From the IMG/VR virus record IMGVR_UViG_3300026078_000024, positions 28,878 through 92,877 of that record: a stretch of 64,000 bases of DNA; one strand, 5' to 3'. Positions 2,014-63,799 of the stretch are shown here, piece after piece. This stretch comes from a virus. A program made the position numbers and the translations under genes. The notes beneath the pieces were generated by a model. That model worked only from the letters and a program-made list of their open reading frames with translations. It was not told the origin of the DNA and ran no database searches. Positions within the stretch are counted from its first letter, which is position 1, and the number at the start of each line of letters is the position of its first letter.

Positions 2014-2147
2014 GGCTTCCTCCGGTCCTTGATGTCCCGTGCGACAAGACCGGCGATCGCCCCCAGGCAGACACCGATCACTCCCATCACGATCAACCCG
2101 AGGACCGGGCCGTAGAAGCCGGTGAAGTAGTCGATCACGGCGGTCAC
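2010..2147 (-). CDS. small membrane protein (45 aa)
   Basis: MTAVIDYFTGFYGPVLGLIVMGVIGVCLGAIAGLVARDIKDRRKP; GTGA overlaps at both ends. Confidence 0.6.
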   Translation of the reverse strand: MTAVIDYFTGFYGPVLGLIVMGVIGVCLGAIAGLVARDIKDRRKP

Positions 2148-3403
2148 AGTTTCCTCCCCAGGCGGATCAAGGTAACGCCGGACTGGTCGACGATGATCCC
2201 CGTCGGATCGATGACCACGGATCCGGGGGCGAACCGCAGAGACCGGAACTCCTCATGCCCGCATCCGATCACGAACACCGACCGGTGCTGGACCACCTCC
2301 GGGTTCCAGTGATCGTCAGTGTGCGGGTCCGTGGTATAGACCGGCACGATCTCCGCGAGTTGCTGGAAGAGAAGGAGCGCGGCCGACCCACCGGCGAGAT
2401 CACTGCCCGGCCGGTACGCGTTGCCGAGGATCACCACGGGAAGGTCGGTGAGGGCGTGGTAATCGATCGCGAGGGACGCGATCCACGACGACTGCGCCTC
2501 CCGCGCCCTCTGGAGGAACCCGAAGATATCGGCGGAGAGATCCAGCCGGTCGGCGAGATGCGACATGGCCACCACGTCCCGGGGGTGGCAGTACCCGCCT
2601 CCACCCATGCCGCCCTTGAGATACCTCCGGCTCATCAGGTTCGTGGTGGCGAGGGCGAGGGTGGTGGAGACGTCGTCCACGTCCGCGCCGGTCTTCTCGG
2701 CCAGCTCCAGCATCGTGTTCGCGAAAACGATCTTCATGGACGTGTACGTGTTGTACGCGACCTTGGTCAACTCCGCCGACGGGATCCTCATGGTCCTGAT
2801 CGGCCGGGAGTGCAAGGACGTGTAGATCTCCGTCACCGCGAGGGCGTCCTCGTAGGTGTCGGCACCCACGATCACGAACTCCGGGTTGAGGAGATCGTCG
2901 GCCACAGACCCGAGGGAGATCAGGGACGGGGTGTAGACCAGTCGGGTGTGATCGTTGAGGAGCGGCCGGAGCAACCTGTCGCACGTGCCGGGGAGCACTG
3001 TGGAGATCACCGCGATCGTGATCGTCTTGTGTGCCATGTCGGCCGCGCGCGCCAGCGACCGGACGGCGTTGATCAGGTAGGCGTAATCGAAGTCGCGCCG
3101 GGTCTCGGGGTCGAGGTTCGGCACGGTCCCGTCGAGGTGCGCCGGGTGCGGAGTCTGCACCGCTACAAAGATCGTGTCGGCGTTCGCGACGAGGGTCGCC
3201 GGGTCGTTGACGACGTTCATGCGGTTCAGGGCGAGGAGGTTGTCGATCTGTACCTCCTGCGGCGGCACGGCCTTGCCGGAGATGATGTCGAGGGGGTGCC
3301 GGGACATGTCGCACCCGGTCACCCGGTGTTTCCCGTGGACGTCGAGAACGAGGGCAAAGACGAGGCCCAGCTTCCCGAGACCGAGGACACCGACGTCAGC
3401 CAT
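2144..3403 (-). CDS. UDP-glucose/GDP-mannose 6-dehydrogenase family
   Basis: GLGKLG Rossmann motif, STVLPGT, SAELTKVAYN, GGGYCHPRD catalytic Cys; start trimmed to MADVGV. Confidence 0.92.
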   Translation of the reverse strand: MADVGVLGLGKLGLVFALVLDVHGKHRVTGCDMSRHPLDIISGKAVPPQEVQIDNLLALNRMNVVNDPATLVANADTIFVAVQTPHPAHLDGTVPNLDPETRRDFDYAYLINAVRSLARAADMAHKTITIAVISTVLPGTCDRLLRPLLNDHTRLVYTPSLISLGSVADDLLNPEFVIVGADTYEDALAVTEIYTSLHSRPIRTMRIPSAELTKVAYNTYTSMKIVFANTMLELAEKTGADVDDVSTTLALATTNLMSRRYLKGGMGGGGYCHPRDVVAMSHLADRLDLSADIFGFLQRAREAQSSWIASLAIDYHALTDLPVVILGNAYRPGSDLAGGSAALLLFQQLAEIVPVYTTDPHTDDHWNPEVVQHRSVFVIGCGHEEFRSLRFAPGSVVIDPTGIIVDQSGVTLIRLGRKL

Positions 3404-3405
3404 GG

Positions 3406-4164
3406 TCAGTCCTTCCGGGTGAGGATCGCGGCGCAGTACCGCCGGTCCGGGGTGAGGTAGTCGAAGTCGGTGATCGTGAACAGGTCTCCGAACCGCCGGT
3501 CGAGCTTCTCGCGGTCGTACCACGTGGCGTAGGTCCCGGTACCGTCGAAGAACCGCACGAATTGATCGAACTTCTCGTGCTCCTCCACCGGCTCCCGGGG
3601 CGGCTCGGTGCCGGTGGCGATCCTCCAGCCCTCGTCGCTGTAGACCATGAGCCGGATCTTCCCGTCCGGAGCCAGCATGAGATCGAACATTTCCATGGTC
3701 AGGCGGGCCTTGCGGATGTGGTGCAGCACCCCGCAGCAGTGGATCTCGTCGTACGTGTCGGTCAGGGCATGGATGTACGGCCACTCTTCAGTGATCTTGT
3801 ACATGTTCTTCGGGCCCCGGCCGGTCTCCAGACTCATCACGTGCGCGGCCAGTTCCACGTTCGCGGAGGACAGGTCGGCGATCGAGACGATGGCGCCGGT
3901 CCTGGCGATCTCCGCCGCTTCCATGCCCACCCCGCAGCCGTACTCCAGCACCCGTTGCCCGTACCGGTTCTCGTCCAGTGCCATGTAACGGCGCCACAGG
4001 CCGTCGTGGTTGCGCCAGCCGGTGTAACGGGTCTGGCGCATACGCTCGATCACTTCGTGAAGGTGATCATCGTTCCACGTGAGCATCTCGGCGGACGAGA
4101 GATACCCGACGTCGTCCACCGGCGGCAGGGACCATGCAGTCACGGTGTCGGCCCACTCGGTCAT
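3406..4164 (-). CDS. class I SAM-dependent methyltransferase
   Basis: VLEYGCGVG motif I, YDEIHCCGVLHH, LAPDGKI. Confidence 0.85.
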   Translation of the reverse strand: MTEWADTVTAWSLPPVDDVGYLSSAEMLTWNDDHLHEVIERMRQTRYTGWRNHDGLWRRYMALDENRYGQRVLEYGCGVGMEAAEIARTGAIVSIADLSSANVELAAHVMSLETGRGPKNMYKITEEWPYIHALTDTYDEIHCCGVLHHIRKARLTMEMFDLMLAPDGKIRLMVYSDEGWRIATGTEPPREPVEEHEKFDQFVRFFDGTGTYATWYDREKLDRRFGDLFTITDFDYLTPDRRYCAAILTRKD

Positions 4165-5432
4165 GACTTCCCCACGATCTCGAAGTGCGGCAAAGGAAAG
4201 ATCATCCGGCCGCCGTTCTTCAGGTAGTCGGCTTCCCGTTCGAGGAACACGGACCGGAAGAACCACGGGGAGATCAGGAGGTACTCCGGGTGGACGGCCC
4301 GCATGCCGGACTCATCCATGATCGGAATCCCGGTCGCGGACATGATCTTTCCGACCTTGGCCGGTGACCGTTCCACGGCGTACGGCAGGAGATCCGGCCC
4401 GGCGTCGATCATCTGGAGGAACGTCCCGCCCCGGGTGGACGCGCCGTACAGATAGACCGTCTCGCCCCGGTCGGCCGCCTTCTCCAGGAACGCCCGGGTG
4501 AGATCGAGTTCCTGCTTGACCGACCGGCCCCACTCCTGCCACACCTCCGGTCGTTGCAGCCCCTTGATCACCTCGGTCTCGTACACGTCCTGCACGCTGG
4601 CCGACTGCGGCCGGTCTCCGATGCGGGACACGGCCGTCCGGATGCACCCGCCGTTGACGGACGAGAAGGTGACATCGTTGATCTCCAGGCCGTGACGCTC
4701 CAGGAGGATCATGAGGGGGAGGAGCGCGAAGTACGTCACGTGTTCGTGGCACACGTTGTCGACTGCGTTCCGGCGGAGCATGTCCCCGGCGTAGTTCTGC
4801 TGAATGATCCACACCCCGCCGGGGGCGAGGCACTGCTCCACCCCGTGGACGAACCGGTTCGGATCATCGAGGTCGTAGAACATGGACACGGACGTGATCA
4901 CGTCGAACTCGCCGGGCTGGAAGAACCGGGGAGAAAAGTAGTTGTAGATCACCCGGTCGGCCGCGCCGGTCCGGCGCGCGTCCCGGGCGATCACGTGGAC
5001 CGGGTCGATCCCCGTGCGGGTGATCCCTGCCGGGACGTGACTGAGGAGGGTCCCGTCGTTGCAGGCGATGTCCAGCCACCGGCGCGGGTCGTGGCGGAAG
5101 GCGAGGGCGTAGTCGACCACGTCTTTGAGGTCCCGGACGATCGCCTCGTTCGTGCCGGACCGGAAGCCGTATCGATCATGGTAGAGCTTCTCGCGCGGCG
5201 TCGACTCCCCGAGCTGAAGAAGGGTGCAGTCGAGGCAGATCTTGAGCTTGAGGGGGTACGTCTCGGCGTCCGACCGGTAGTCGTCCGGGTCCACGAAGTC
5301 GGGGAGGCGGTGATTGCCGAGATCGATCACGTCCACGAGGTGGAGGGAGCCGCAGGACCGGCACACCACCCCGGGAACGCCCTCAATCAACGCCTGCATG
5401 TTCCGCAGGCCCGCATCCGTGGTCTTGCTCAC
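4161..5432 (-). CDS. NDP-hexose C-methyltransferase (TcaB9/NovU-like)
   Basis: CRSC...YPLKLKICLDC zinc domain, LDIACNDGTLL, HEHVTYF, YGASTRG, GGRMIFPLP. Confidence 0.9.
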   Translation of the reverse strand: MSKTTDAGLRNMQALIEGVPGVVCRSCGSLHLVDVIDLGNHRLPDFVDPDDYRSDAETYPLKLKICLDCTLLQLGESTPREKLYHDRYGFRSGTNEAIVRDLKDVVDYALAFRHDPRRWLDIACNDGTLLSHVPAGITRTGIDPVHVIARDARRTGAADRVIYNYFSPRFFQPGEFDVITSVSMFYDLDDPNRFVHGVEQCLAPGGVWIIQQNYAGDMLRRNAVDNVCHEHVTYFALLPLMILLERHGLEINDVTFSSVNGGCIRTAVSRIGDRPQSASVQDVYETEVIKGLQRPEVWQEWGRSVKQELDLTRAFLEKAADRGETVYLYGASTRGGTFLQMIDAGPDLLPYAVERSPAKVGKIMSATGIPIMDESGMRAVHPEYLLISPWFFRSVFLEREADYLKNGGRMIFPLPHFEIVGKS

Positions 5433-6319
5433 TGGCTCCTCCAGTAGCTCATGACGTCGGACAACATGGAATGCAGGGAGGTGGTCGGCCGCCAGCCGGT
5501 CACCGTCTTGATCTTCGCGTTGCTCGGGACCGGCCAGACCTGCGCGTCCCGGTGGACCAGGAGCGGATCTTCCTTCAGCTCGATCTCCGCCGTGGACATG
5601 CTCGCGAGGGTGTGCATGACGTGTTCCATGGTCACGTTGTTGGCCGAGCACACGTTGTAGATCCCCGGCTCCGCGTCGATCACGGCCGCGTATGCCTGCA
5701 CCACGTCCCGGACCGAGGTGAAGTTGCGGTACGCGGAGAGATCACCGTGTGAGACGAAGTCGGCGTGGCCCCGCTCCACGGCCACGATCCGGCGCGCGAA
5801 AGACGACTCCGCGTTCGCCGACTGGCGGCCCCACCCCGTATGGTTCCAGGCCCTCGTGCAGACGACGTGCATTCCGTACCGGCGCGCGTACGCCTGACCG
5901 GCCGTCGTCGCCCCCAGCTTCGCCGCTCCGTACGGCGTGGTCGGGAAGCATGGGGACAGCTCGGTGATGATCTCCGCCCCGTCCGGCCGCTCGTATCCGT
6001 ACTCCTCCGACGTGCCGGTGATCAGGATCCTCGCGTGTGCGCCGGTGGTCCGGACGGCCTCCAGGGTGTTCAAGGTTCCGCCCACGTTGACGTCGAACAC
6101 CCGGCGCGGATTGCGGAGCGACTCTCCCGGCCACGAGACGGCTGCCAGGTGGAAGATCTTGTCAGGCTGGAACTCGCTGACCATGTGCCGGACGGTCTCG
6201 AAGTCGCGGACGTCGCACGCGGCGAGGGTGCACCCCTGAACGGTGTGCCCCTGGTTCTCCAGCAGCTTGCGGAGGTGAGGCCCAACGAAGCCCCCCGCGC
6301 CCGTGATCATTGCTTTCAC
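5429..6319 (-). CDS. NAD-dependent NDP-sugar dehydratase/reductase (GMD/RMD-like SDR)
   Basis: ITGAGGFVG, FHLAA, TSEEYG, YGAAK catalytic motif. Confidence 0.9.
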   Translation of the reverse strand: MKAMITGAGGFVGPHLRKLLENQGHTVQGCTLAACDVRDFETVRHMVSEFQPDKIFHLAAVSWPGESLRNPRRVFDVNVGGTLNTLEAVRTTGAHARILITGTSEEYGYERPDGAEIITELSPCFPTTPYGAAKLGATTAGQAYARRYGMHVVCTRAWNHTGWGRQSANAESSFARRIVAVERGHADFVSHGDLSAYRNFTSVRDVVQAYAAVIDAEPGIYNVCSANNVTMEHVMHTLASMSTAEIELKEDPLLVHRDAQVWPVPSNAKIKTVTGWRPTTSLHSMLSDVMSYWRSQ

Positions 6320-19938: not shown

Positions 19939-20175
19939 ATGGACTTTCTGACGTGGTGCCGGTCGAGCGACCGGTGGCGTTCGCATGCATGGGCCAATGA
20001 TCGTCGTGTCCGGCTGCCCGCAGACACCCCCGAGACCCGGGAGGCGTACGAGGAGACCTTCGTCTCCGCCGGGTACGGCGGATACCTGCACCGGCTCGCG
20101 GAGGAGACGGTGCACACCGGGTCGTCCGCATGGGCGGAGTACGTCACGGCCATGGGTGCGGAGGGCGGCTCATGA
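19939..20175 (+). CDS. hypothetical protein
   Basis: ATGA overlap with the replicase start. Confidence 0.55.
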   Translation: MDFLTWCRSSDRWRSHAWANDRRVRLPADTPETREAYEETFVSAGYGGYLHRLAEETVHTGSSAWAEYVTAMGAEGGS

Positions 20176-23100
20176 CCACGGATGCGGAGATCGCTCAGCA
20201 GAACGGTCATGTGGAGGGGGCTCAGGAGAGGGTCCTCGACGCCCTCGGGCACCCGTTCTCCCCCGAGTCGCTGCGAGTGCTGGCGGAGTCGGCGATCACA
20301 CCGGAGACGGCGGCACGGTACGGGATCACCGCCGTGGCGGATCCCGATCACATCCCTGACGAGATCTTCGGATCGTGGCACGCGTTCCTCGGCGAGGCCG
20401 AGACCGGCATGATCTTCACCTGGCGGGACACCGACCGGGAGATCCCTCAGTACCGTCCGGACGTGGCGGTGCAGACGCCGGACGAGAAGATCCACAAATA
20501 CCTCGTCCCGCGCGACTCCGGCACCTTCCTCAACCATCTGCGGAACCCCGTCGGCCCGGACGACCCGGTGTTGTTCGTGGAGGGGTCGAAGCAAGGCGTG
20601 GCTGCGGCAGCGTGGGCCCCGGAGGGGTGGGGGGTTGTGGCGGTACCCGGGTGCAACAACTGGGTCGGCACAGACCTCTCATGGGCCGACGGCCGCAAGG
20701 TGATCATTCTCTTCGATGCGGACTTCACGTCGAACCGTGACGTGTACGACGCGGCAGCCGGGCTGAAGGAGGCGCTGGAGGTCGAGGGCGCGGCGGAGGT
20801 GCGGTTCGCGCATCTCGCCGGGGCACGCAACAAGGACGGTCTCGACGACGTTCTCGGACGGCGGCCGGAGAACCGGCGGACCCTGTACATCGAACGGATC
20901 GCCGACATGGCGGCCGACCGTCTCGGACGGCGGCCCACCCGTTCCGTGCGCGCATCCGCGTATTTCGACGAGAAGGGCCTGTTGGCCCGGACGTCCGCCC
21001 TCACCGTTCTCGGCAATCAACCGGCGGCCCTCGCGGACGGATCCATGATCGCTCTGTACCGGGACGGCGTGTACCGGATCGATCTCGGGGACGAACCGCT
21101 GATCGAACAGGTCAAGGATCTCCTGGGTGAGGACTACCGGCCCGCGCACCGGAAGACGATCGAGGAATATCTCGTCGGCGAGCTGTCCGGTCGAAACCTC
21201 CGGGTCGGGCAGAGGTCCACGGAACCGCTCCTGAACACCGCGTCGTGCATGATCGACCTCCGCACCGGCGAGGTACTGGATCATGATCCGAAATACCTGA
21301 GCACGTTGCAGATCCCGGTCCCGTGGGTGCCGGACGCGGCGTGTCCGACGTACGAGGCGTGGCTTGAGGACGTGATCCCCGGCCAGGCCGAGGCACTGGA
21401 GGAACTCGCGTCCACGATGCTCGACCCGTCCCGGACGCCCTTCAAGGCGGCGTTCCTCTACGGGCCGACGCACTCCGGCAAGTCGACGTTCCTGCGGATC
21501 ATGGAAGCGGTCGCGGGTGCGGCGAACCGGTCGGCCGTCGATCTCCACCAGCTCGTCGATGATCATTTCATGTCTGCCGAGCTGTATCAGAAGATCTTGA
21601 ACATCGGGTCCGACATGTCAGCCGCCCACATCTCCGACGTCTCCCTGTTCAAGAAACTCACCGGCGAGGACCCGGTGCAGGCGAACCGGAAATACGGCCG
21701 GACGTTCACCTTCACGAACCGCGCCCTGTTCGCCTTCTCCGCAAACGAGATCCCCACCGTCGGCGAGACCTCCCGGGCGTACGTGCAACGCATGATGCCA
21801 TTCCACTTCTTCAACTCGTTCGCCGGTAACGAACGGCCGGAAATTGAAGAGCGGATGCTCCGCGAGGAACTCCCGGGGATTCTCCGCCGCTGGGTCTCGG
21901 CGTGGCGCCGGTTCTCCGAACGCGGGATCTACCTACCGGTTCCGGAGGACGTGCAGACGGAGTTCGAGACGTCGAGCGACCGAGTCGCCCGGTGGGTGCA
22001 GCTCCGGTGCGACGTGCACCCCGAGGCAATCGGGCAGATGGTCGGCGCGGACAAGGGAGAGACGATCTCCGCTCTCTACTCCTCATTCAAGATCTGGGCG
22101 AGGGAGGACGGACCGGCAAACGTCATGTCACGGCAGAAGTTCTCGGAGCGTCTCCGGCGCATGGATGGGGTCGGGGAGGTACGTCTCGCGCACCGGAACA
22201 AGAACCGGGGTCTGAACATCACCACGCGGACCGGAGAGGACCGGGAGATCGTTCATGTCCGTTCTGCCCCAGTGACTGACGGAGATGACCGGAATGCCCC
22301 GGTGACTGACGCGGATGACCCGAAGGCTTCCGGTACTGACGGAGATGACCGGAATGCCCCGGTGACTGACGCGGACGCACCAAATGAACCGGTGTCTACC
22401 AAGAACGTACGGAATGACAGCAATGTCGGTGTCCGTTCTGCCCCAGTCTCTACCGGAAACGTGACGGTTCGTCCCGGTGTGGGTGTGGGTGGTGTTGGTC
22501 GAACCCCGGTAAAGGGCATAGCAGTGGTTCAGAACAAGATCAACGATCTTTCCTCTGAAACTCCCTCATGGACCGAATTCTCTGATAAGACCCACACCGC
22601 CAACACCGCCCAGGTCAGAGATGGTTCTTATACTCACACCGAAGTCACACCCCCCAGGTCAGGGGCCACACCAAGACCCACACCGGGGCAAACCGGTACA
22701 TCTCCGATAGACACTGGGGCAAAACCGGACACCCCCGCTCCCGCGCCCCCCGACAAGACAGGACCGGCCGTGACTTCGAAAACACCCACACTTCCCACAC
22801 CCCCCAGGTCAGAGCACTGCCCCGACCCGTTCGCCGACCACACCCCGCCTCCGTCCGCCGTGCCGGTGGGTCTCGACCTGGAGGCATGGGACGCGGAAGA
22901 TCTCTTCCGTCACGACACCCCGGTCCTCGGTCCGTACGTCCGTCTCGTGGGTGCCGGTCCGGTCGGAGACGTGGCCACCGGTCGCGCGGAGGTTCTCGAA
23001 CGCATCCGGGGAGACAACCCGATCGTGGGCGTGAACCTCGCCCTGTTCGATCTCCCCGCCCTTGACGTGCACGAGGGGATCCCGGTGGAGGAGACGATCC

Positions 23101-24587
23101 CCCGGGCGCATGACATCCGGTTCGTGGCATTCCAGGACGACCCGCCGACGAGTTACGAGACGAAAGCCGGGCCGCATTACAAGCACTACAACCTGGAATC
23201 GCTCGCCAATCGGTATCTCGACGACCACAAGTCGGATCTCGGAAAGGCACTCGCCAAAGAATACGGCGGGTGGGGACATATCGCGTACGAGGACGCGCGG
23301 TATCACGACTACTGCCGGGACGACGTAAACAAGGCTCTCCGTCTCGCGGACGTCCTCCCCATGACCGACTACGACCGGCGGGAAATGCGCGTGGCCGCGA
23401 TCCTGGCGCGCGCGTCCATCGAGGGGTTCCGGGTGGACGTCCCGGCCCTCGAACGGCGGATCACGGAGCAGGCGGAGCAGACGGCCGCCGGTCGGCAGAT
23501 GCTCCACGACCGGTTCGGGTTCCCCACCCACACCGCCGACGGGAAGAACGTTTCGAAGGCCCCGCAACGGACGGTGGCGGGGAAGAGGGCGTTCGAGGAG
23601 GCGCTGAAGTCGTTCGGTGTGGATCTAGGTGACTGGCCCCGTGGCAAGGACGGGTCCCTCTCCCTCGGCAAAGAGATCATGGCCGAGGCGATCGTGTGGG
23701 CGGAGACGGAGAACCATCCCGCCCTGGCGATCATGAAGGCGGTCGCCGAGATGAACGGCCTCCGCTCGAACGCGGCCAACATCATGCGGTGCGTGGTGGG
23801 GGACCGGGTCCACCCGAGGTTCGAACCGTTCCAAGCGTTCGGCCGGTGGTCGGTCACCGAGCCGGGCCTGACGGTGCTCAAGAAGAGCTACGAGGACTCC
23901 GACCGGATCTTCATGCTGCCCGACCCGGGCGAGGCTCTCGTGTCGTTCGACGCGGACCAAGTGGACATCCGGTGCGTGGCGTTCCACTCCCAGGACCCAG
24001 GTCTCCTCGCGATCATGCAGGACCCGGACCGGGACATCCACTCCGAGATCTCCGATCTCGCGTTCGGCGATCATGAACCCGATCACCGGTTCCACGCCAA
24101 GTCGTGCGACCTGGGATGGCTGTACGGCCGCACCGTCAACGGTCTGGCCAACACCCCGGGGATCACCCGCGAGGCGGCCGAACGGGTGGACATGACGATG
24201 CGGACGCAGTTCAACTCCGTGCCGGACTGGCAGCATGACGTGCGGCGGGCGGCAGAGGGCCGCGCGTTGCTCGACAACGGGTTCGGGAGGCACTTCCGGT
24301 GCGACGAGGGCAGGGAGTACACCCAGGCACCGGCGGGACACGGTCAGTCGATGACACGGGACGTGGTGGCCGAAGGACTCCTGCGCATGAAGGACCGGCA
24401 CCCCGAACTGATCCCCCGTCTCCGCGTCGTCGTCCATGACGAGATCGTGATGTCCATCCCCAGGGCTGATCTTGAGGACGTGAAGCGGGCGGTGATCGAG
24501 GATATGACGATCGAACGGGGCGGCGTGCCGTTCACGTGGGGATCTTCCCCCGCCGGAGACAACTGGGCCGAGTGCTACAAGAAGTGA
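20172..24587 (+). CDS. primase (TOPRIM)-SF3 helicase-family A DNA polymerase fusion
   Basis: LFVEGSKQ / ILFDAD / DGLDD TOPRIM; GPTHSGKST D5-type helicase; GLDLEA exonuclease; SFDADQVDIR, HAKSCDLGWLYG, VVHDEIV PolA motifs A, B and C. Confidence 0.92.
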   Translation: MTTDAEIAQQNGHVEGAQERVLDALGHPFSPESLRVLAESAITPETAARYGITAVADPDHIPDEIFGSWHAFLGEAETGMIFTWRDTDREIPQYRPDVAVQTPDEKIHKYLVPRDSGTFLNHLRNPVGPDDPVLFVEGSKQGVAAAAWAPEGWGVVAVPGCNNWVGTDLSWADGRKVIILFDADFTSNRDVYDAAAGLKEALEVEGAAEVRFAHLAGARNKDGLDDVLGRRPENRRTLYIERIADMAADRLGRRPTRSVRASAYFDEKGLLARTSALTVLGNQPAALADGSMIALYRDGVYRIDLGDEPLIEQVKDLLGEDYRPAHRKTIEEYLVGELSGRNLRVGQRSTEPLLNTASCMIDLRTGEVLDHDPKYLSTLQIPVPWVPDAACPTYEAWLEDVIPGQAEALEELASTMLDPSRTPFKAAFLYGPTHSGKSTFLRIMEAVAGAANRSAVDLHQLVDDHFMSAELYQKILNIGSDMSAAHISDVSLFKKLTGEDPVQANRKYGRTFTFTNRALFAFSANEIPTVGETSRAYVQRMMPFHFFNSFAGNERPEIEERMLREELPGILRRWVSAWRRFSERGIYLPVPEDVQTEFETSSDRVARWVQLRCDVHPEAIGQMVGADKGETISALYSSFKIWAREDGPANVMSRQKFSERLRRMDGVGEVRLAHRNKNRGLNITTRTGEDREIVHVRSAPVTDGDDRNAPVTDADDPKASGTDGDDRNAPVTDADAPNEPVSTKNVRNDSNVGVRSAPVSTGNVTVRPGVGVGGVGRTPVKGIAVVQNKINDLSSETPSWTEFSDKTHTANTAQVRDGSYTHTEVTPPRSGATPRPTPGQTGTSPIDTGAKPDTPAPAPPDKTGPAVTSKTPTLPTPPRSEHCPDPFADHTPPPSAVPVGLDLEAWDAEDLFRHDTPVLGPYVRLVGAGPVGDVATGRAEVLERIRGDNPIVGVNLALFDLPALDVHEGIPVEETIPRAHDIRFVAFQDDPPTSYETKAGPHYKHYNLESLANRYLDDHKSDLGKALAKEYGGWGHIAYEDARYHDYCRDDVNKALRLADVLPMTDYDRREMRVAAILARASIEGFRVDVPALERRITEQAEQTAAGRQMLHDRFGFPTHTADGKNVSKAPQRTVAGKRAFEEALKSFGVDLGDWPRGKDGSLSLGKEIMAEAIVWAETENHPALAIMKAVAEMNGLRSNAANIMRCVVGDRVHPRFEPFQAFGRWSVTEPGLTVLKKSYEDSDRIFMLPDPGEALVSFDADQVDIRCVAFHSQDPGLLAIMQDPDRDIHSEISDLAFGDHEPDHRFHAKSCDLGWLYGRTVNGLANTPGITREAAERVDMTMRTQFNSVPDWQHDVRRAAEGRALLDNGFGRHFRCDEGREYTQAPAGHGQSMTRDVVAEGLLRMKDRHPELIPRLRVVVHDEIVMSIPRADLEDVKRAVIEDMTIERGGVPFTWGSSPAGDNWAECYKK
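22266..22415 (+). repeat. five degenerate 30-bp tandem repeats inside the replicase linker
   Basis: GCCCCAGTGACTGACGGAGATGACCGGAAT-type units encoding APVTDGDDRN / APVTDADDPK and variants. Confidence 0.85.
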
Positions 24588-28813: not shown

Positions 28814-29202
28814 CCAAGGTTCTCGGAGAACGCACGAGCGCCCCGATCAAGGCGGCGGATCTCGACGTGATCGACGTCGACAACCTCGCCCGGCCGGTGC
28901 GCTACACCACCAAGGAGCTGAACGCCCTCTGCCCGGTCACCGGCCAGCCGGACCAGTACGAGGTGATCATTCAGTACGACGCGCCGGGGAAGACGATCGA
29001 GTCCAAGTCCCTGAAGCTCTACCTCTGGTCGTTCCGGGACCGGGGGATCTTCGCGGAGGATCTCGCCGCGACGATCGCGAAAGATCTCTGCAAGGCGTTG
29101 CGGTTCCCGGTCCGGGTGCATCTCACGCAACAGGTCCGGGGCGGGTTGGTCCTGGAGGTCGACGCGTTCGGAGAACCGGTCATGGGGAGTGACGACGTAT
29201 GA
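28810..29202 (+). CDS. queF: preQ0 reductase (type I QueF)
   Basis: LCPVTGQPD, QueF motif ESKSLKLY, RGG. Confidence 0.9.
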   Translation: MTKVLGERTSAPIKAADLDVIDVDNLARPVRYTTKELNALCPVTGQPDQYEVIIQYDAPGKTIESKSLKLYLWSFRDRGIFAEDLAATIAKDLCKALRFPVRVHLTQQVRGGLVLEVDAFGEPVMGSDDV

Positions 29203-35572: not shown

Positions 35573-35592
35573 CTGCGCTGGAGCAAGATCAG

Positions 35593-35665
35593 TCGGGTGG
35601 GTGAGACTCGAACTCACGATCTCTGGTTCCCGAAACCAGTGCCTTACCACCTTGGCCACCACCCG
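35593..35665 (-). tRNA. tRNA-Pro (anticodon CGG)
   Basis: CGGGTGG/CCACCCG acceptor stem, D arm GCCAAGGTGGTAAGGC, CTGGT-TTCGGGA-ACCAG anticodon arm, GTGAG-TTCGAGT-CTCAC T arm; CCA not encoded. Confidence 0.92.
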
Positions 35666-35925
35666 TGAGCGGGAGAACCGGGCACGCGCCCCCGGCTGCG
35701 ATCGTTGACACCGCTCCCGCACGGCTGTCTGTGAAGCCTGCTGGTGCCAGCCGCAGCGGACCCAGGTGCATCGGAGGTGTGACGGCCTCCGCCAGGGGTC
35801 GGCCACGGGGGACGGGAAGACACCGAGTAACCCGTGATCACTGTCCCTTTGCCCGGCGCCCCTCGGACGTCACTCCTACTCACGCCGTATGCTGCTCACT
35901 GTATCGGACCGACCGAAGGATATGC

Positions 35926-37920: not shown

Positions 37921-38249
37921 GCCCGGAGCCCAACTACACAGAAGATCCAGGTGATTTCGACTTCGGCTCCCTCGACAAACCCAAAACGGAGGTGCTCTCT
38001 TCTCGGGCCATGCCGGTCTCGGAGGCGGCCAAGGCGTTGCGGAACGCGGCATCCGGCCGGGCCGGAGACGCGCGGGTGTTCAAGATCAATGCCGAGGGGT
38101 CAGTGGAGACACGCGGGTATTCTCCGGACGAGGTCCGGCAACTCATGTCCGACTGGCGTGATCACATGTTCGACTTCGGCCGCCGCGCGCAGGCCCTCGC
38201 GGGCACCATGGACGAGATGCACGACCCGGGGACGGGGGGATACCAGTGA
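37917..38249 (+). CDS. hypothetical protein
   Basis: GTGA overlaps. Confidence 0.55.
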   Translation: MSPEPNYTEDPGDFDFGSLDKPKTEVLSSRAMPVSEAAKALRNAASGRAGDARVFKINAEGSVETRGYSPDEVRQLMSDWRDHMFDFGRRAQALAGTMDEMHDPGTGGYQ

Positions 38250-38935
38250 TCGGATTCCTGATCGGGTTCCTCGGTCATCTCGCCGTCTCTGCGATCATCG
38301 CCGGTCGCATGTACCGGCGTGAGTACGATCTCGTCTACGGATCACCGGCCCCGCAGATCTACGGCGGGAAGCACGGTCATGACGCGGCCCACCGGGCGGC
38401 CATGCGCGAGGCCATGCCGTGGTTCGCCTTCTGGCCGTTCTTCGGTCTCTGGGCAGGCATGGGGTGGCTGATCACCCTCGGACACCGGCAGTCGTGGGTC
38501 GAACGGGCCAACGAACTACGGAAGTTGGAAGAGGAGACGGGTCAACTCGCCACGCAGCAAGACCCGTTGGCGGGTCTCGACCGTACCGTGGGAGGGGGCA
38601 TGACCGTCACCCATGACCAAGATGCAGCCCGGCATCCCTGCCCGTGCGGGTACGTCACGGAGTGTGGGATGCATTGCGGGGACGGACACGAGACCGGTCG
38701 GTGCCCGGCGAACCACTTCCCCCCGTTCCCGGTCGCGCGTCTCGGCGATCATCCCGAGTTCGGTGATCTCTCCGGTGCGGAGATGGTGGACTACGTCATC
38801 CGGGCCCGGCATCCGGAGAAGCTCGTTCAGCATGTGAAGTGCGGGAAGATCCGGGAGTACGAGGTGGGCACGATGAAGGAGCCCGGCCGGAAGATGTTCA
38901 TCGACGACCGTGGCCACTGCTGGGAGGACGCATGA
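38246..38935 (+). CDS. membrane protein with Cys-rich C-terminus
   Basis: Two hydrophobic segments; CPCG. Confidence 0.6.
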   Translation: MIGFLIGFLGHLAVSAIIAGRMYRREYDLVYGSPAPQIYGGKHGHDAAHRAAMREAMPWFAFWPFFGLWAGMGWLITLGHRQSWVERANELRKLEEETGQLATQQDPLAGLDRTVGGGMTVTHDQDAARHPCPCGYVTECGMHCGDGHETGRCPANHFPPFPVARLGDHPEFGDLSGAEMVDYVIRARHPEKLVQHVKCGKIREYEVGTMKEPGRKMFIDDRGHCWEDA

Positions 38936-39258
38936 CCAACTATGTAGATCTCGACGAGCTGAAGGACCGGGTGTATTTCGAGTCGGCCACGTTCGACCGG
39001 CGGTTCAAGTGGTCGGAGATCATGCCGGACCCGAAGGTCGCCCCGGTGATCGCCGGTGAGGGCGGAGAACCGGACCGGTGGGCCGACGGGTTCCGCCGGT
39101 TCCACCTCCTCGACTGCGCGCACCGGGACGTGGACCGTGACGGTGATCTCTGCACCCATTGCGGCCACGCCTTCGAGCACTCCCCGCATGCGGTGTGGGA
39201 GACGAAGGGCGCGAAGGCGGCAAAGAAGACGACGGCGCGGCGGAGGAAGACGAAGTGA
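38932..39258 (+). CDS. hypothetical protein
   Basis: RBS GGAGG; ATGA overlap. Confidence 0.55.
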   Translation: MTNYVDLDELKDRVYFESATFDRRFKWSEIMPDPKVAPVIAGEGGEPDRWADGFRRFHLLDCAHRDVDRDGDLCTHCGHAFEHSPHAVWETKGAKAAKKTTARRRKTK

Positions 39259-39412
39259 AGCCGAAGCAGAAGATCTTGGTTCCCATGGCGCCGGAGCGGC
39301 GTCTCGCGGTGTACGCCCGGCAGCGGGGCGTGGAGGAAGATCTCTCGCGTCTCACCCCGAGGCAGCGGCGCCGGTACCTCAAGAAGATCCCGTACTGGCA
39401 ACGGATCAAGAA

Positions 39413-39416
<4 letters not shown>
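39255..39416 (+). CDS. small basic protein
   Basis: LTPRQRRR; overlaps with neighbours. Confidence 0.5.
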
Positions 39417-41037
<1,621 letters not shown>

Positions 41038-41041
<4 letters not shown>

Positions 41042-41066
41042 CACGACCGTGCCGATCATGCAGGGT
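41038..41066 (+). promoter_or_regulatory. sigma70/HrdB-type promoter
   Basis: TTGACA-17 nt-CAGGGT, upstream of a structured region with no credible ORF. Confidence 0.6.
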
Positions 41067-41072
41067 AGGAGT

Positions 41073-41355
41073 CAACGCGTTGCCGACGGGTGACGCGGGG
41101 CGTGACGGAAGGGCCCTATGCAGAACGGGGCCCGAACGTGCGACCGGCGGAAGACAACCGCCGGGGTGGCTGGCCAACGGTGATCCACCCGGGCGGGACG
41201 GGAGTAGCGTCTCGGAATCTGTGTCCTCGCGGACTAACGGTTGACCCGGGGTTGAGTGGCCTATACCCAAGGACTGCACCCCGGTGGAGGTGGAATCCTC
41301 CCACCCACACAACCGCCCCCGGCGTGCCTCCTTCGGAGGAGTCCGGGGGCGTTGT
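41073..41355 (+). ncRNA. candidate structured ncRNA (~280 nt)
   Basis: Promoter, about 7 consecutive hairpins and a terminal UUCG-capped terminator; no credible ORF. Confidence 0.6.
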
Positions 41356-41359
41356 GCTG

Positions 41360-41443
41360 TCACCTCTGAAGTGCCGGAATGAGCACATCGACGATCAACC
41401 ATGCCGCGAGGATCGCGGCGAGGATGGTTCCGAACAGTTTCAT
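41360..41443 (-). CDS. 27-aa hydrophobic peptide
   Basis: MKLFGTILAAILAAWLIVDVLIPALQR. Confidence 0.55.
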   Translation of the reverse strand: MKLFGTILAAILAAWLIVDVLIPALQR

Positions 41444-41445
41444 GA

Positions 41446-41523
41446 TCAGATCACCCCGAGCACGGCGAGGATCAGCAGGAGCACGAGCAGGCAGACGAGG
41501 ACGTACAACAGGCCACCAGGCAT
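41446..41523 (-). CDS. 25-aa hydrophobic peptide
   Basis: MPGGLLYVLVCLLVLLLILAVLGVI; RBS GGAGGTG. Confidence 0.6.
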   Translation of the reverse strand: MPGGLLYVLVCLLVLLLILAVLGVI

Positions 41524-41587
41524 GACGATCACCTCCGGGTGTCTCTCCGGACGGATACCCCGGTTGACATGATCTATCGTCGTGCTC

Positions 41588-42961
41588 ATGGTTGGTCCGT
41601 CCACGGCACGTCTCGCGGCGCAGCGCATGAGGGATCTCGCGGCCCTCGCGCGCCGTACTGCCATGGGGTGGCAGCCGGAACCCCACCAGATTCCTCCCCC
41701 GGGCAACTGGTACGGCTGGCTCCTCCTCGCCGGACGTGGTGCGGGCAAGACCGATGCCTGCGCGCACGCCATGGTGGAGCACGTGAACGGTCCGGCGTGC
41801 ATGCCCGGCCCGATCCCTCACTGGATGGCTATCATCGGCCCGACCCTCGGTGACGCTGTCCGCTCCGGCTACGAGGGTCCGTCGGGGATCCGGGCCCACG
41901 ATCCCCGGGCGGTGAAGGTCACCCGGGACGGCGGAACGGTGATCCATTGGCCGAACGGGTCCGAAGCGAAGATCTTCGGTGCCCACTCGGAAGAGGACAC
42001 GGACCGTCTCCGTTCCGGCGGTAACAACTGCTTCGTGTGGTGCGAAGAGATGGCGGCCTGGCGCTATCTGGATCTTGCCTACGCACAGATGCGCTTCGGT
42101 CTCCGCACGGGTCCCCGGCCCCGGTGGATCGGGTCGACCACACCCCGGCCGCGCGCGTTGATCAAGAAATTCGCCCAGAAGACTCCCCGGAACATGGTGA
42201 TCACCCATGCCACGACCCGGGACAATCCCCACCTCGGCCAGGAGTTCTATGAGTCGTTGATCGAGGCGTACGGAGGGACGTCTCTCGCGGCCCAGGAGCT
42301 TGAGGGCCGGATCATCGACCAGGACGAGAACGCCCTGTGGGTGCGCGAGTCGATCGAGAGGAACCGGATCGACCTGGACGACGCGCCCCACTTCTCCAAG
42401 ATCACAGTGGGTGTTGACCCGTCCGGCGGCGCCGGAGAACAGGGAGTCGTCGTGGCGGGCAAGTCGTTGTGGCTCCCGCCCGGGGCGGATGAGAGGTTGG
42501 TCAAGCCGAAGATCCACGGGTTCGTTCTCGACGACCGGACGTGCCATCTCAAGCCGGACGGGTGGGGGAAGCGCGTGGTGCGCGCGGCCGTCGACTGGGA
42601 GGCGGACGATATCGTCGTCGAACAGAACTACGGCCGCGACATGGCCATTGCCACCGTCCGGGCCGCACAGGAACACCTCGGGTACAACATCCCGATCAGG
42701 GTGGTCAACGCGACCCGGGGAAAGAAGGTCCGCGCGGAACCCGTCTCCGCTCTCACCGACAACGGCCGGTGGCACCACGCCGGTGTCTTTGACGACCTTG
42801 AGGACCAACTCTGCACGTGGCATGAGGAGTTGGACTGGTCCCCTGACCGTCTCGATGCCATGGTGTGGGATGCCTGGCACCTGAAGCTCGCGCACACCGC
42901 ACCGGCAGGACCGGCGTCGATCGGGTCCAGTGCAGCGCGGAAAAAGATCGCCATGGGCTAG
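41588..42961 (+). CDS. terL: terminase large subunit
   Basis: AGRGAGKT Walker A, WCEE Walker B, STTP, VGVDPS, SPDRLDA nuclease motifs. Confidence 0.95.
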   Translation: MVGPSTARLAAQRMRDLAALARRTAMGWQPEPHQIPPPGNWYGWLLLAGRGAGKTDACAHAMVEHVNGPACMPGPIPHWMAIIGPTLGDAVRSGYEGPSGIRAHDPRAVKVTRDGGTVIHWPNGSEAKIFGAHSEEDTDRLRSGGNNCFVWCEEMAAWRYLDLAYAQMRFGLRTGPRPRWIGSTTPRPRALIKKFAQKTPRNMVITHATTRDNPHLGQEFYESLIEAYGGTSLAAQELEGRIIDQDENALWVRESIERNRIDLDDAPHFSKITVGVDPSGGAGEQGVVVAGKSLWLPPGADERLVKPKIHGFVLDDRTCHLKPDGWGKRVVRAAVDWEADDIVVEQNYGRDMAIATVRAAQEHLGYNIPIRVVNATRGKKVRAEPVSALTDNGRWHHAGVFDDLEDQLCTWHEELDWSPDRLDAMVWDAWHLKLAHTAPAGPASIGSSAARKKIAMG

Positions 42962-43008
42962 TGCTATGATCCGTCCGGCTCAATCCACCTCACGAAGGAA
43001 CCCCGGCC

Positions 43009-43380
43009 ATGGGAAGTGTCACCAAGATCTTCGGCAGAGAGCAGGCGATGTGGCTCGGCCTCGTCGCCGGTGTTGTCGGCGTCCTCACCGGTTTCGGGAT
43101 CCAGGTCCCGGAGCACGCACAGGGCATCGTCACTGCCGTGATCGTCTTTGCCTTCGGCGTCTACAACGCGGTCAAGCTCCACGACGGCCTGAACGCCCTC
43201 GTGTCGCACGTCGCCCTCGCGCTCTTCTCCCTCCTCGCGGCCTTCGGTCTCAACTGGTCGGATCACAAGCAGGCTCTCGTTCTCGGCGGCCTCGCCCTCG
43301 TGACCGGGTTCATTACCCGGCAGGTCTCGACCAACCCGGTACCGGCGGCCGTCAGCCCGGCAGGGAAGCTGGTGGAATGA
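43009..43380 (+). CDS. holin-like membrane protein
   Basis: Four hydrophobic helices; FGRE...TRQVS actinophage holin pattern. Confidence 0.7.
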   Translation: MGSVTKIFGREQAMWLGLVAGVVGVLTGFGIQVPEHAQGIVTAVIVFAFGVYNAVKLHDGLNALVSHVALALFSLLAAFGLNWSDHKQALVLGGLALVTGFITRQVSTNPVPAAVSPAGKLVE

Positions 43381-43643
43381 GCAAGCGGGCATGGGGGATC
43401 GTCGCGGCCTCGGTCGCGGCGGTCCTCGTGGCCCTGGTCGTCTTCCTCGTCCACGGGTCCGGGTCGTCCGGTCCGGACCTCGGGGCGTGCAAGAGGGCGA
43501 TGCAGCGGCAGTTCGACTACGGCATGAAGCACCCGGACGCACCGGCGGGGACGAGGCCGCCGGAATGCCGGGGTGTGCAGGACAAGGACGTGCAGAGGTT
43601 CGCTGGCGAGATCATCGCCCACTACAACGGAACGGGATCGTGA
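43377..43643 (+). CDS. membrane-anchored protein
   Basis: N-terminal transmembrane segment; ACK...RPPECRG. Confidence 0.6.
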   Translation: MSKRAWGIVAASVAAVLVALVVFLVHGSGSSGPDLGACKRAMQRQFDYGMKHPDAPAGTRPPECRGVQDKDVQRFAGEIIAHYNGTGS

Positions 43644-43834
43644 GCAGGTCGAGGGGCGGAGCTGAGCAGAGGGCGTTGAACGCGGCCCGGCAGCGGCGCG
43701 ACAACGGGGATCCCCTCCCTTTCATGCTGATCTTAAAGCAGGAGCGCGACCGGCGGGGAGTGATCCTGCCGGTGGGGAAGTCCCGGCGGAAGGTCGAGAC
43801 GGTGAGGAGCGATCTTCTGTGTTCCGAGAACTGA
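43640..43834 (+). CDS. small basic protein
   Basis: GTGA overlap. Confidence 0.45.
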   Translation: MSRSRGGAEQRALNAARQRRDNGDPLPFMLILKQERDRRGVILPVGKSRRKVETVRSDLLCSEN

Positions 43835-44244
43835 TCTTGTGGCTGATGCTCTCGGCCGCTTCCTTCCGTCTCACGCGCCTCGTGGTCAAGGACACGTTCC
43901 CGCCGGTCCTGTGGGTCCGCGACCGCCTCGCCGGTGGCTGGCGGCCGATGACCGACGCCGACTGGCGGGAGGTCCGGCAGCCGGGCGTGCCGGTCCTGGA
44001 GAAACACCCGGTCCCCTTCCAGGTGCAGGTGATCAACAAGGTGAGCAACCGCTGGGTAGAACGTGCGAAGTGGTCGCCGGACTGGCTGGCCGAACTGATC
44101 ACCTGCCCGTGGTGCGCGTCGGCGTACGTCTCGGCGTGCGTGGTCGGCGTGACGGATATCGTCATCGGCCTCGCCTGGCCGTGGCTCATGGCGTTCGCGG
44201 TGTGGGCCGTGGCCGCTCCATTGGCAGCAAGGGAATGGTCATGA
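43819..44244 (+). CDS. DUF1360-like membrane protein
   Basis: FRLTRLVVKDT...ELITCPWCAS. Confidence 0.75.
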   Translation: MFRELILWLMLSAASFRLTRLVVKDTFPPVLWVRDRLAGGWRPMTDADWREVRQPGVPVLEKHPVPFQVQVINKVSNRWVERAKWSPDWLAELITCPWCASAYVSACVVGVTDIVIGLAWPWLMAFAVWAVAAPLAAREWS

Positions 44245-62668: not shown

Positions 62669-63058
62669 ATGGCACAGGATTTCGTGGTCGTGGACCCCCG
62701 CAAGGGGATGTTGCTGGCTGAACGGTCGGCGGTCGCCCTGGTGGCGCAGACGACGGAACGGGTTGCCATGGCGGCGCGCGCCATGGCGCCGGGATCCATG
62801 AAAACCAAGATCCGCGCCGTGCCGAGCAAGGGCATCGGACTGGTGATCAGTGATCACCCGGCGACGATGTTCGTGATCTACAAGACCAAGCCGCACATCA
62901 TCATGGCCAAGAGGGCGGGCGGCTACCTGAAGTTCCAGGTGAAGAACTCCAGTGACTTCACCTTCGTCGGTCCGTCTCCGCATCGGTTCGTCCGGCACCC
63001 GGGCAACCAGCATCCGAACAACTTCCTGCTCAAGGCCCTGGAAGCGTCCAAGTTCTGA
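62669..63058 (+). CDS. neck/HK97 gp10-like protein
   Basis: TKPHII, VRHPG..PNNFL..AL. Confidence 0.7.
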   Translation: MAQDFVVVDPRKGMLLAERSAVALVAQTTERVAMAARAMAPGSMKTKIRAVPSKGIGLVISDHPATMFVIYKTKPHIIMAKRAGGYLKFQVKNSSDFTFVGPSPHRFVRHPGNQHPNNFLLKALEASKF

Positions 63059-63128
63059 CGATCATGCAGGTCTGCATCTCTGGTGAGTTATGCAGTGGCA
63101 TGGCTTACGGTGTATAGCACGATCCAAA

Positions 63129-63283
63129 TGATCAAGCGCTGACCAGGTAAAACTCTTTTGATCTTACCCCTGGTCCACTCATACCTTGGACCCTAAACGA
63201 TCTCGTTAGCGGGGCAGCCAGAGGTTTTCTCACCCTACGTGTTGGTAACTTTTCTTATTACCACGCTGGGCAACCGGATACCC
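63129..63283 (+). repeat. dispersed ~150-bp intergenic element, copy 3
   Basis: Core at 63195-63228. Confidence 0.95.
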
Positions 63284-63346
63284 ATGCAGGACGGCGCATA
63301 CAGGGTTCCGGAAAGATCTTGAGCCTCGACGCGCTACGTTGATCAA

Positions 63347-63799
63347 ATGAAGGATTTCACGAGGCAGCCCCGCGTAGTCGAGTTCATGATCAACGATGAT
63401 CATTTCCGTGGAAAGCCGTTCCTGGCGGCTCAGACGATGATCGACTTCACCCTGAAGGTCGACAAGCTCGGGGAAGACATCACCGCGCAGCAAGGGTTCG
63501 ATCTCATGTCCGAGTCCCTCGCACTGGTCCTCATGCCGGACAGCATGAAGCGGTTCAAGGACCGGATGATCGACCCCTCCAACCCGGACGCGGCATCCCT
63601 GACCGGCCAGCCGCCGATCGAGCTTCCACAGGTGAACGAGATCATCGAGTGGATCATGGAGGAGTACGGGATGCGCCCCCCAGCGTCTCCGCCGACCTCA
63701 TCGGATGGGCCCTCACCCCAGGGCGGTGGAGCGAACTCAACGGAGAGGCCGCAGGACGTGGTGTCGATCTCCTCGGGCTCCCAGCAGACCAGTTTCTAG
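63347..63799 (+). CDS. tail assembly chaperone (short form)
   Basis: MKDFT...PI.L.QVNEIIEWIMEEYGMRP. Confidence 0.8.
   Translation: MKDFTRQPRVVEFMINDDHFRGKPFLAAQTMIDFTLKVDKLGEDITAQQGFDLMSESLALVLMPDSMKRFKDRMIDPSNPDAASLTGQPPIELPQVNEIIEWIMEEYGMRPPASPPTSSDGPSPQGGGANSTERPQDVVSISSGSQQTSF

Follow-up and report, generated by a model that had tools for sequence, protein, structure and literature searches.

A structured and mobile RNA element in uncultured soil phages that probably belongs to a family not yet described

Bacteriophage T4 encodes two stable RNAs of no known function, species 1 and species 2, beside its transfer RNA (tRNA) genes. The ROOL and GOLLD RNAs are likewise phage-encoded and often lie beside tRNA genes, combine a covariation-backed multi-helix fold with pseudoknots, and have no known protein partner or function. 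They form RNA-only cages in which some ‘pseudoknots’ are contacts between molecules, and GOLLD is reported to rise during lysis (bioRxiv 10.1101/2024.12.08.627333). A 2023 catalogue of ~10,000 viral structured-RNA candidates holds motifs of 29–151 nucleotides (nt) (PMC10690425). Here we describe an RNA element in an uncultured phage, within a stretch of 64,000 nt (positions 28,878 to 92,877 of IMG/VR record IMGVR_UViG_3300026078_000024) that we call the window and whose numbering we use throughout. The element occupies a 320-nt gap, with a lysin-like gene and a 61-residue open reading frame (ORF) upstream and tiny minus-strand ORFs and the gene for the large terminase (TerL) downstream. We put the probability that it is a real, independent, expressed and structured RNA of a new family at roughly 80%. 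Rfam 15 has nothing on it (positions 38000-44000 searched at E up to 10, and five homologous loci at E up to 5), and blastn searches of GenBank phages with the RNA region and with the tRNA-flanking region gave no match; the family thus appears not to have been described.

By analogy, the nearest known kind would be the ornate phage RNAs that lie near tRNA genes. As with ROOL and GOLLD, all copies found are on phage contigs, and a proline tRNA gene follows directly in three of the nine loci; a predicted pseudoknot and abundance in RNA samples are further points of likeness. In other respects these RNAs differ. Their covariance models match neither the window (E up to 10) nor five homologous loci (E up to 5), and they share no sequence or structure match with the present RNA; they measure ~600 to >800 nt, against a core of ~235 nt here, and come from Firmicutes, rumen or lake organisms, whereas the hosts of the present RNA are presumed to be soil Actinomycetota. 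ROOL and GOLLD are also defined by their multimers, whereas the present RNA offers an invariant UGGCCA loop and a loop–loop pairing that is possibly intermolecular. The T4 small stable RNAs are shorter, sit in a tRNA cluster and mature from tRNA precursors, whereas the present RNA has its own promoter-like site and terminator hairpin and stands without a tRNA directly after it in six of nine loci.

The case for a conserved RNA is built on nine distinct homologues, all from uncultured phage or soil contigs (the window, L049, L002, L050, L051, L021, L040, L043 and L048). They came from a BLAST search of 35 viral loci related by their terminase, from three scans of viral contigs for exact patterns, from a further scan of metagenome contigs and from a covariance model, R1, which scores the window at 247.6 bits and the other eight at 222–269 bits; pairwise, the copies are 71–97% identical. 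Run over 30 TerL-related loci, the covariance model returned no additional copies. A scan of 185,579 species-representative genomes with a single pattern gave four chance matches, none confirmed by the model, and no copy in a cultured or metagenome-assembled host. Two loci from the first viral pattern scan (L037 and L039) were chance 18-mers within coding sequence, two from a scan with a T-arm pattern (L053 and L054) were also chance matches, and a search by way of a tail-protein neighbour led to two loci, L055 and L056, the second of them in record G002, in which the RNA model finds nothing.

The plus strand of the element has a minimum free energy of −160 kcal/mol (z = −3.2, with none of 100 shuffles as good), and the minus strand gives z = −2.3. 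G-U cells exceed A-C cells by 55 to 3 in paired columns, so the plus strand is the folded one, as the first-pass annotation of this DNA had argued from several G-U pairs. A first model, from RNAalifold on five sequences, had 88 pairs, 25 of them with compensatory changes. It was then revised by pair counting and covarying columns on a nine-sequence alignment: one helix was swapped for a GUCC/GGAC hairpin, the inner hairpin of the H9 arm, paired in just 66.7% of cells, was removed, and a loop–loop pseudoknot was added. The RNAalifold helices rejected after pair counting were two, UCUGUG/CGCGGA and this inner hairpin. The revised fold has 70 pairs in 11 helices. The nine-sequence alignment was itself fitted to a model of this family. 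Its cells are paired in 97.4% of cases, against 35–47% when the 3′ partners are slid by 1–3 columns, and 28 pairs are changed on both sides, against 2–6 in these slid controls. The covariation score was matched by none of 500 shuffles.

Helix by helix (Table 1), the compensatory changes are spread over H1, H4, the four helices of the large arm and H9. By contrast, the closing helix H2 shows a single U-A to U-G change among its five pairs (97.8% of cells paired, none compensatory) and was placed by conservation and energy, H3 is invariant, and so is the H11 stem, whose loop reads UGGAAU or UAGAAC across homologues. Every motif listed in the first-pass annotation is present in the sequence where it was said to be. 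The stems CGCGTTGC/GTGACGCG, GGGCCC, GGGTGG/CCACCC, GACGG/CGTCT-type, GTCC/GGAC and CCGGGGT/ACCCCGG gained comparative support from the nine homologues, with GGGTGG/CCACCC forming the upper part of H6. The proposed CCGGCGG/CCGCCGG stem, complementary in the window, fails in L021, L050 and L051; its 5′ half is instead used in H5 and its 3′ half in the base of H6. For the T-arm-like GGAGG-TGGAAT-CCTCC-CACCC, the sequence is there, and covariation neither supports nor contradicts the invariant stem.

Among copies that differ at one quarter of all positions, approximately 60 unpaired nucleotides never vary. This set includes four CGGAA/UGGAA elements, five AACG elements and the palindromic UGGCCA within the 15-nt invariant apical region of H6. 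Both joiners of the large arm, GCGGAAGACAA and GGAAUCUGU, are invariant, and the 9-nt apical loop of H4, AUGCAGAAC, is nearly so. The reverse complement of the 15-nt loop has three matches in the phage at up to three mismatches (one being its own site), against 2.6 expected. Such a pattern speaks for tertiary contacts and a specific surface for binding, not for antisense pairing, and the apical loop has no target in the phage. The predicted pseudoknot joins the H4 loop to the interior of the H9 arm and is paired in all nine copies, with one compensatory event, GCGG with CCGC in L040. This contact would form either within one molecule or between molecules, and the H4 loop could alternatively pair with an invariant UCUGU at 41218-22.

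Table 1. Positions of the RNA element, its predicted helices, its neighbours and the RNA contigs that cover it (window numbering)
Feature	Position	Strand	Details
Rpf-type transglycosylase + NlpC/P60 + LysM protein (lysin-like)	39738-40859	+	Upstream neighbour; Pfam E = 6.6e-36, 3.6e-19, 7.7e-07
61-aa ORF	40856-41041	+	Between lysin-like gene and RNA; stop TGA lies within TTGACA −35
Promoter-like site (putative)	41038-41066	+	−35 TTGACA 41038-43, 17-nt spacer, −10-like CAGGGT 41061-66
Predicted primary transcript	41074-41360	+	~285 nt; from near the conserved CAACG to U-containing tail; ends predicted from the putative promoter and terminator
Conserved structured core	41074-41312	+	235 model positions; five-way junction, with a three-way junction within one arm
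H1, 5′ hairpin	41076-83 with 41090-97	+	CGCGTTGC/GTGACGCG; 8 pairs, 5 compensatory, 100% of cells paired
H2, closing helix	41099-41104 with 41302-41306	+	5′ strand GG-C-GUG with CACCC; shuts the five-way junction
H3/H4 arm	41105-41139	+	ACG/CGU (41105-07 with 41137-39), symmetric GAA/GAA internal loop, H4 hairpin
H4 (GGGCCC arm)	41111-17 with 41127-33	+	7 pairs, 3 compensatory, 100% paired
Pseudoknot	41120-41123 with 41274-41277	+	GCAG (H4 loop) with CUGC; 4 pairs, 100% paired
Large arm	41141-41243	+	H5 encloses joiner GCGGAAGACAA, H6, H7, joiner GGAAUCUGU and H8
H5	41141-46 with 41238-43	+	2 of 6 pairs compensatory
H6	41158-75 with 41179-96	+	16-pair hairpin, 5 of 16 pairs compensatory
H7 (GACGG/CGTCT-type)	41199-203 with 41210-14	+	4 of 5 pairs compensatory
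H8 (GTCC/GGAC)	41223-26 with 41231-34	+	Loop UCGC; 2 of 4 pairs compensatory
H9 arm (CCGGGGT/ACCCCGG)	41246-52 with 41278-84	+	7 pairs, 6 compensatory; length-variable interior with the 3′ pseudoknot half
H11, T-arm-like hairpin	41286-41301 (41286-90 with 41297-301)	+	GGAGG-UGGAAU-CCUCC; invariant stem; abuts H2 3′ strand with no linker
Terminator (putative)	41314-41360	+	Outer stem CGCCCCCGG/CCGGGGGCG (41314-22 with 41343-51), inner CCUCC-UUCG-GGAGG, tail UUGUGCUGU
Hydrophobic ORF, 27 aa	41360-41443	-	GGAGGTG ribosome-binding site; divergent from TerL, converges on RNA terminator
Hydrophobic ORF, 25 aa	41446-41523	-	GGAGGTG ribosome-binding site; divergent from TerL, converges on RNA terminator
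Large terminase (TerL)	41582-42961	+	Downstream neighbour; Pfam Terminase_6N 9e-19, Terminase_6C 2.4e-07
Run X19 contig	41084-41326		Depth 56.8; no mismatch
Run X21 contig	41084-41308		Depth 46.2; no mismatch
Run X23 contig	41084-41300		Depth 6.4; no mismatch

The signals that would start and end such a transcript are conserved in position. The first-pass annotation had pointed to a TTGACA-17-CAGGGT promoter and to a terminator tipped by a C(UUCG)G loop, and both are found in the window (Table 1). A TTGAC-type −35 stands at the matching position in seven of nine homologues, and all nine have a −10-like hexamer with A at its second position, of the A-at-2/T-at-6 or the TAA type, 4–6 nt ahead of a conserved CAACG; this hexamer closes with C in L048 and L043 and with T in the other seven copies. 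At the 3′ side, a GC-rich hairpin with CCCCCGG-type arms is present in every homologue, its interior differing in each. Directly ahead of the promoter-like site of the RNA, L040 and L048 have a terminator-like hairpin that belongs to the preceding gene. The terminator of the RNA probably also ends the convergent minus-strand peptide genes.

Metatranscriptomes place this RNA in natural communities. Six runs hold parts of the 3.3-kb stretch around it, and four of them were compared with that stretch. Runs X19, X21 and X23 each contribute a single error-free contig that lies wholly within the predicted RNA; in X19, the remaining error-free phage contigs have depths of 2.1–3.4, and positions 40921-41083 are uncovered. 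DNA contamination would give even cover, so these contigs indicate a discrete RNA that is abundant in rhizosphere RNA samples, far more so than the neighbouring messages. A transcript, on which the earlier proposal had been made to depend, is thus present, its contigs confined to 41084-41326 in three runs. These contigs give no strand, exact ends or level, and the three studies represent one year, one habitat and maybe one campaign. Run X20 holds pieces of the 3.3-kb stretch and no contig over the RNA, and we draw no conclusion from it; high depth at 39875-39940 in the RNA runs was traced to mismatched contigs from Rpf domains of other organisms. The common 5′ limit, 41084, is 10 nt past the conserved CAACG, where the −10-like hexamer predicts the start. 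Ordinary complementary DNA (cDNA) libraries lose ~10 nt of a transcript's 5′ end. The limit may therefore reflect such loss after a start near 41074 or, alternatively, a processing site in the H1 loop.

The genomic distribution of the RNA is that of a cassette. Seven of the loci carry it in the gap that separates the lysin-like gene from TerL; the other two, L043 and L048, have it in the tail module, flanked by homologues of the window genes at 62669-63058 and 63347-63799. These two copies have opposite orientations relative to the flanking tail genes, and the L043 copy is inverted relative to all flanking genes. The corresponding slot in the window, 63058-63347, is a gene-free, AT-richer gap of 289 nt in which the RNA model has no match. 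One copy per genome was found in all five RNA-bearing records examined, and a model search with a positive control found none in nine complete relatives with TerL 56–64% identical, in which the lysin–TerL gap is filled by unrelated small ORFs and hairpins. RNA identities do not track TerL identities: the L002 RNA has its nearest counterpart in L040 (88.5%), though the terminases are only ~60% related, and the window RNA is nearer to the L048 RNA than to the L002 RNA. Between the window and L040, the RNA is ~81% identical in nucleotides, whereas the flanking proteins are 50–61% identical in amino acids. Two slots, both orientations, sporadic presence, the mismatch of RNA and TerL identities, and an RNA that outconserves its flanks together indicate, on comparative grounds, that the RNA is under strong selection and that the cassette passes from phage to phage. 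Being single-copy, absent from nine relatives, and found in two slots and both orientations, it is very probably neither a terminase leader nor a packaging element. We therefore regard it as a mobile, probably trans-acting cassette, for which an obligatory cis role in packaging or late transcription is excluded. Its portability suggests that phages probably gain a selectable advantage from it during infection.

Other explanations of this stretch have to be weighed against an independent RNA. Two frames are open in the window, one of 160 residues on the plus strand (41090-41572) and one of 126 residues on the minus strand (41022-41402). Their G+C content at third codon positions is 0.70 and 0.60, respectively, versus 0.83–0.88 in neighbouring genes; L021, L050 and L051 have stops in all three plus frames, indels of 2 and 4 nt move the open minus frame between homologues, and no reading frame is maintained across the RNA homologues. 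Substitutions, moreover, follow the pattern of paired RNA. The 160-residue ORF, which the first-pass annotation had recognized as a competitor, is thus not conserved as a protein, and the stretch almost certainly does not encode one. A tRNA-like RNA is a more serious contender. Here, the T-arm-like hairpin on the closing helix would mimic an acceptor/T-arm minihelix, and cutting by RNase P or RNase Z, CCA addition or binding by tRNA enzymes would be expected, as for tmRNA, YrlA or the T4 RNAs. The topology resembles a cloverleaf, with a closing helix, three arms and a 5-bp hairpin abutting the 3′ strand of the closing helix, and the UGGAA of the H11 loop presumably fits the T-loop consensus. 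In L021, L043 and L050, a tRNA-Pro(CGG) gene lies 20–70 nt past the RNA terminator; L049 (2130-2200), just past the terminator, has a canonical T arm, GCCGG-TTCGAGT-CCGGC, around which no tRNA can be called, and this is probably the remnant of a decayed tRNA at the slot that tRNA-Pro(CGG) occupies in L021 and L050. The window has its own tRNA-Pro(CGG), called by ARAGORN on the minus strand (35592-35665) at a distance of 5.4 kb from the RNA; it differs in sequence from the tRNA-Pro genes after the RNA in those three loci, and the 260 nt upstream of it (35666-35925, minus strand) show no excess structure (z = +1.6). Against mimicry, ARAGORN calls no tRNA or tmRNA within the RNA or any homologue, no cloverleaf is recognized, and the Rfam tRNA, tmRNA and YrlA models are silent on the RNA even at E = 10. 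The T-arm-like stem has 5 bp, but its loop is 6 nt rather than a 7-nt UUCRANY, the adjoining helix has five pairs and a bulged C rather than seven pairs, there is no G-U at the third closing-helix pair (the G3-U70 of tmRNA), and there is no tag frame. The abundant RNA contigs overshoot the closing helix by 14 nt on its 5′ side and by up to 20 nt on its 3′ side, a weak argument that the bulk of the RNA is not trimmed to a tRNA-like end. YrlA and other Y RNAs share with the present RNA a structured form and a tRNA-like T-arm module, and some are phage-encoded. They differ in that no YrlA match falls on the RNA (a lone weak match, 21.7 bits and E = 2.8, is on the tRNA next to the RNA in L043), a terminal helix of the Ro-binding kind was not found, and Ro/TROVE (PF05731) is absent from the complete phage record, with a positive control in Deinococcus; the host might carry a copy. 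The earlier suggestion of a Y-RNA-like molecule is disfavoured on these grounds; that of a tRNA mimic survives at most in part, in the cloverleaf-like order of helices, having failed the formal tRNA and tmRNA tests. Overall, we consider a role as a tRNA-pathway RNA unlikely.

An antisense function is suggested by the peptide genes downstream. In this model, a type I antitoxin-like RNA would control the peptides encoded at 41360-41523 through overlap at its 3′ end, much as SR4/bsrG and RatA/txpA RNAs converge on small hydrophobic peptide genes with a terminator region in common. The two hydrophobic ORFs have strong ribosome-binding sites and end 5–9 nt from the RNA terminator on the opposite strand, and a peptide of one or other type is retained in six loci: MRLFxIIVGAIxAAWL is conserved in L002, L050, L051 and L021, and MxxxLxYVLVxxLLVLLILAVLGV is common to the window and L049. 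These six loci all belong to one close clade and hence count as one observation, no such peptide adjoins the RNA in L040, L043 or L048, and a tRNA gene separates RNA and peptide in L021 and L050. The possible overlap is limited to the poorly conserved terminator, with the conserved fold outside it, and the selection on a 235-nt tertiary fold exceeds what antisense pairing needs. The shared terminator may have a side role, but antitoxin activity cannot explain the fold and is quite improbable as the function of the RNA. As a cis-acting leader of the late operon, read through in response to an antiterminator or ligand, the element would resemble the lambda pR′-tR′ 6S RNA and HK022 put, which are also short and hairpin-terminated, with a host-type promoter just before late genes, or else a riboswitch. 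Seven of nine loci have it upstream of TerL, in the same orientation and ended by a terminator, and its size is within the range of large riboswitch aptamers. The lambda and HK022 elements act in cis on their own transcription complex, whereas the present RNA has no fixed position or orientation, being inverted in L043 and in the tail module in L048; in six loci the RNA is separated from TerL by convergent peptide genes, to which two of these loci add a tRNA, nine complete relatives express TerL without the RNA, and the terminator arms have no conserved alternative pairing with the core. TerL, moreover, appears to have its own promoter. TTGACA (41564-69) and TATCGT (41575-80) are conserved immediately 5′ of the TerL ATG at 41588, and conservation in close relatives of TAnnnT 7 nt ahead of that ATG suggests a separate promoter and a leaderless late mRNA. 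A cis-acting leader is therefore very unlikely. Still less probable is a packaging component, whether a phi29 pRNA-like RNA that docks terminase on the portal, in line with the packaging-associated RNA entertained in the first-pass annotation, or a structured cos/pac DNA site. Like pRNA, the element is a phage non-coding RNA tied to packaging genes: it is the neighbour of TerL in most loci, and the place immediately 5′ of TerL is not taken by a small-terminase gene. Its absence from the nine complete relatives and its tail-module position in two phages weigh against this proposal, as do the usual nuclease domain in the accompanying TerL, the lack of an Rfam pRNA match, the location of the relatives' direct terminal repeats elsewhere, and G-U pairs and compensatory changes that fit RNA rather than duplex DNA. 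Finally, a self-cleaving or otherwise catalytic RNA carried as a mobile cassette would account for a compact junction of several helices, with its pseudoknot and numerous invariant unpaired bases, and for contigs that begin at 41084, in the H1 loop, in all three runs. That limit is equally explained by cDNA end loss, no known ribozyme family is matched, and neither a second cleavage product nor a joined form is seen among the RNA contigs, leaving a ribozyme with little probability.

We thus return to an independent structured RNA, the inference first drawn from the sequence of the window and now backed by covariation among nine homologues, a positionally conserved promoter-like site and terminator, two slots and both orientations, and confined RNA contigs. 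How might such an RNA work? Host RNA polymerase would start at the TTGACA-type promoter, immediately next to where the upstream gene stops, make an RNA of ~285 nt and stop at the GC-rich hairpin. In the fold that covariation supports, five helices extend from one junction, namely the closing helix, the arm with the GAA/GAA loop, the large arm with its three-way junction, the variable arm and the T-arm-like hairpin, and pairing of the H4-arm loop with the inside of the H9 arm is predicted to form the GCAG/CUGC pseudoknot. The invariant unpaired nucleotides would form a rigid surface that binds a factor, from host or phage, with a part in tRNA biology, translation or RNA processing, either sequestering or recruiting it, during lytic infection; the RNA could possibly also be a self-associating particle. 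We infer that it acts in trans during lytic infection. By analogy, a scaffold or decoy for such a factor, possibly self-associating, has about one chance in three of being correct. A bolder and rather doubtful possibility is that the RNA founds a separate class of ornate RNAs, carried by Actinomycetota phages, that has no dedicated protein and operates either as a defined RNA-only multimer like those of ROOL and GOLLD, assembled through UGGCCA and GCAG/CUGC, or as a tRNA-directed machine whose substrate during infection, to be captured or processed, is host tRNA or an enzyme that handles it.

Several points weigh against this interpretation. The family is small, and compensatory cells are not independent events, because several of the nine sequences are close relatives and some changes were inherited together. 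Closing helix H2, H3 and the T-arm-like H11, being invariant, are beyond covariation support and depend on conservation, and a single compensatory event underlies the pseudoknot. An E. coli-type consensus scan reports neither promoter nor terminator, since the −10 is weak and the U tract is interrupted; the start, 3′ end and strand of the transcript are likewise deduced, as contigs cannot show them. The apical loop has no complementary target in the phage, and binding or sequestration is proposed by analogy rather than from evidence.

The phage itself is known from a 92.9-kb uncultured-virus record (IMG/VR completeness 100%), of which the window is the terminal 64 kb. The window has a G+C content of 65.5%, and its DNA recurs in many rhizosphere and soil metagenomes. 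The host is probably an actinomycete, since the closest cultured terminase is that of Streptomyces phage mu1/6 (43% identity), and the phage is probably virulent, because the complete record is free of tyrosine and large-serine integrases and direct terminal repeats occur in several relatives. A lysin-like Rpf/NlpC-P60/LysM gene lies just 5′ of TerL in most relatives, RNA-less ones included, and the gap between these two genes is a hot spot for assorted small inserts. The annotated GTG start of TerL at 41582 may not be the true start. In L021 (2172-3001), L022, L025 and L026, TerL is broken after about residue 150 by 350–830 nt of non-TerL sequence, which could be an intein, an intron or a homing-endonuclease gene. 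Elsewhere in the window, a single protein of 1485 residues (20130-24587) combines DUF3854, D5-type primase-helicase and family A DNA polymerase domains. On the minus strand, a block of genes at 2144-6319 specifies a UDP-glucose dehydrogenase-like protein, a C-methyltransferase and a member of the NDP-sugar dehydratase/epimerase family, a combination suggestive of sugars being added to DNA or to the cell surface.

Large, tightly conserved RNAs of unknown function are rare, and past ones have led to riboswitches, ribozymes and RNA nanocages. The narrow spread of the present RNA, with nine copies, and its lack of a functional handle limit its significance. Its core of ~235 nt is nevertheless small enough for probing, crystallography and cryo-electron microscopy, and a covariation-supported five-way junction, a pseudoknot and evidence of expression in natural soil communities are already in hand. 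More broadly, structured RNAs beside phage tRNA genes, of which Rfam holds none from high-GC soil phages, now extend to that group.

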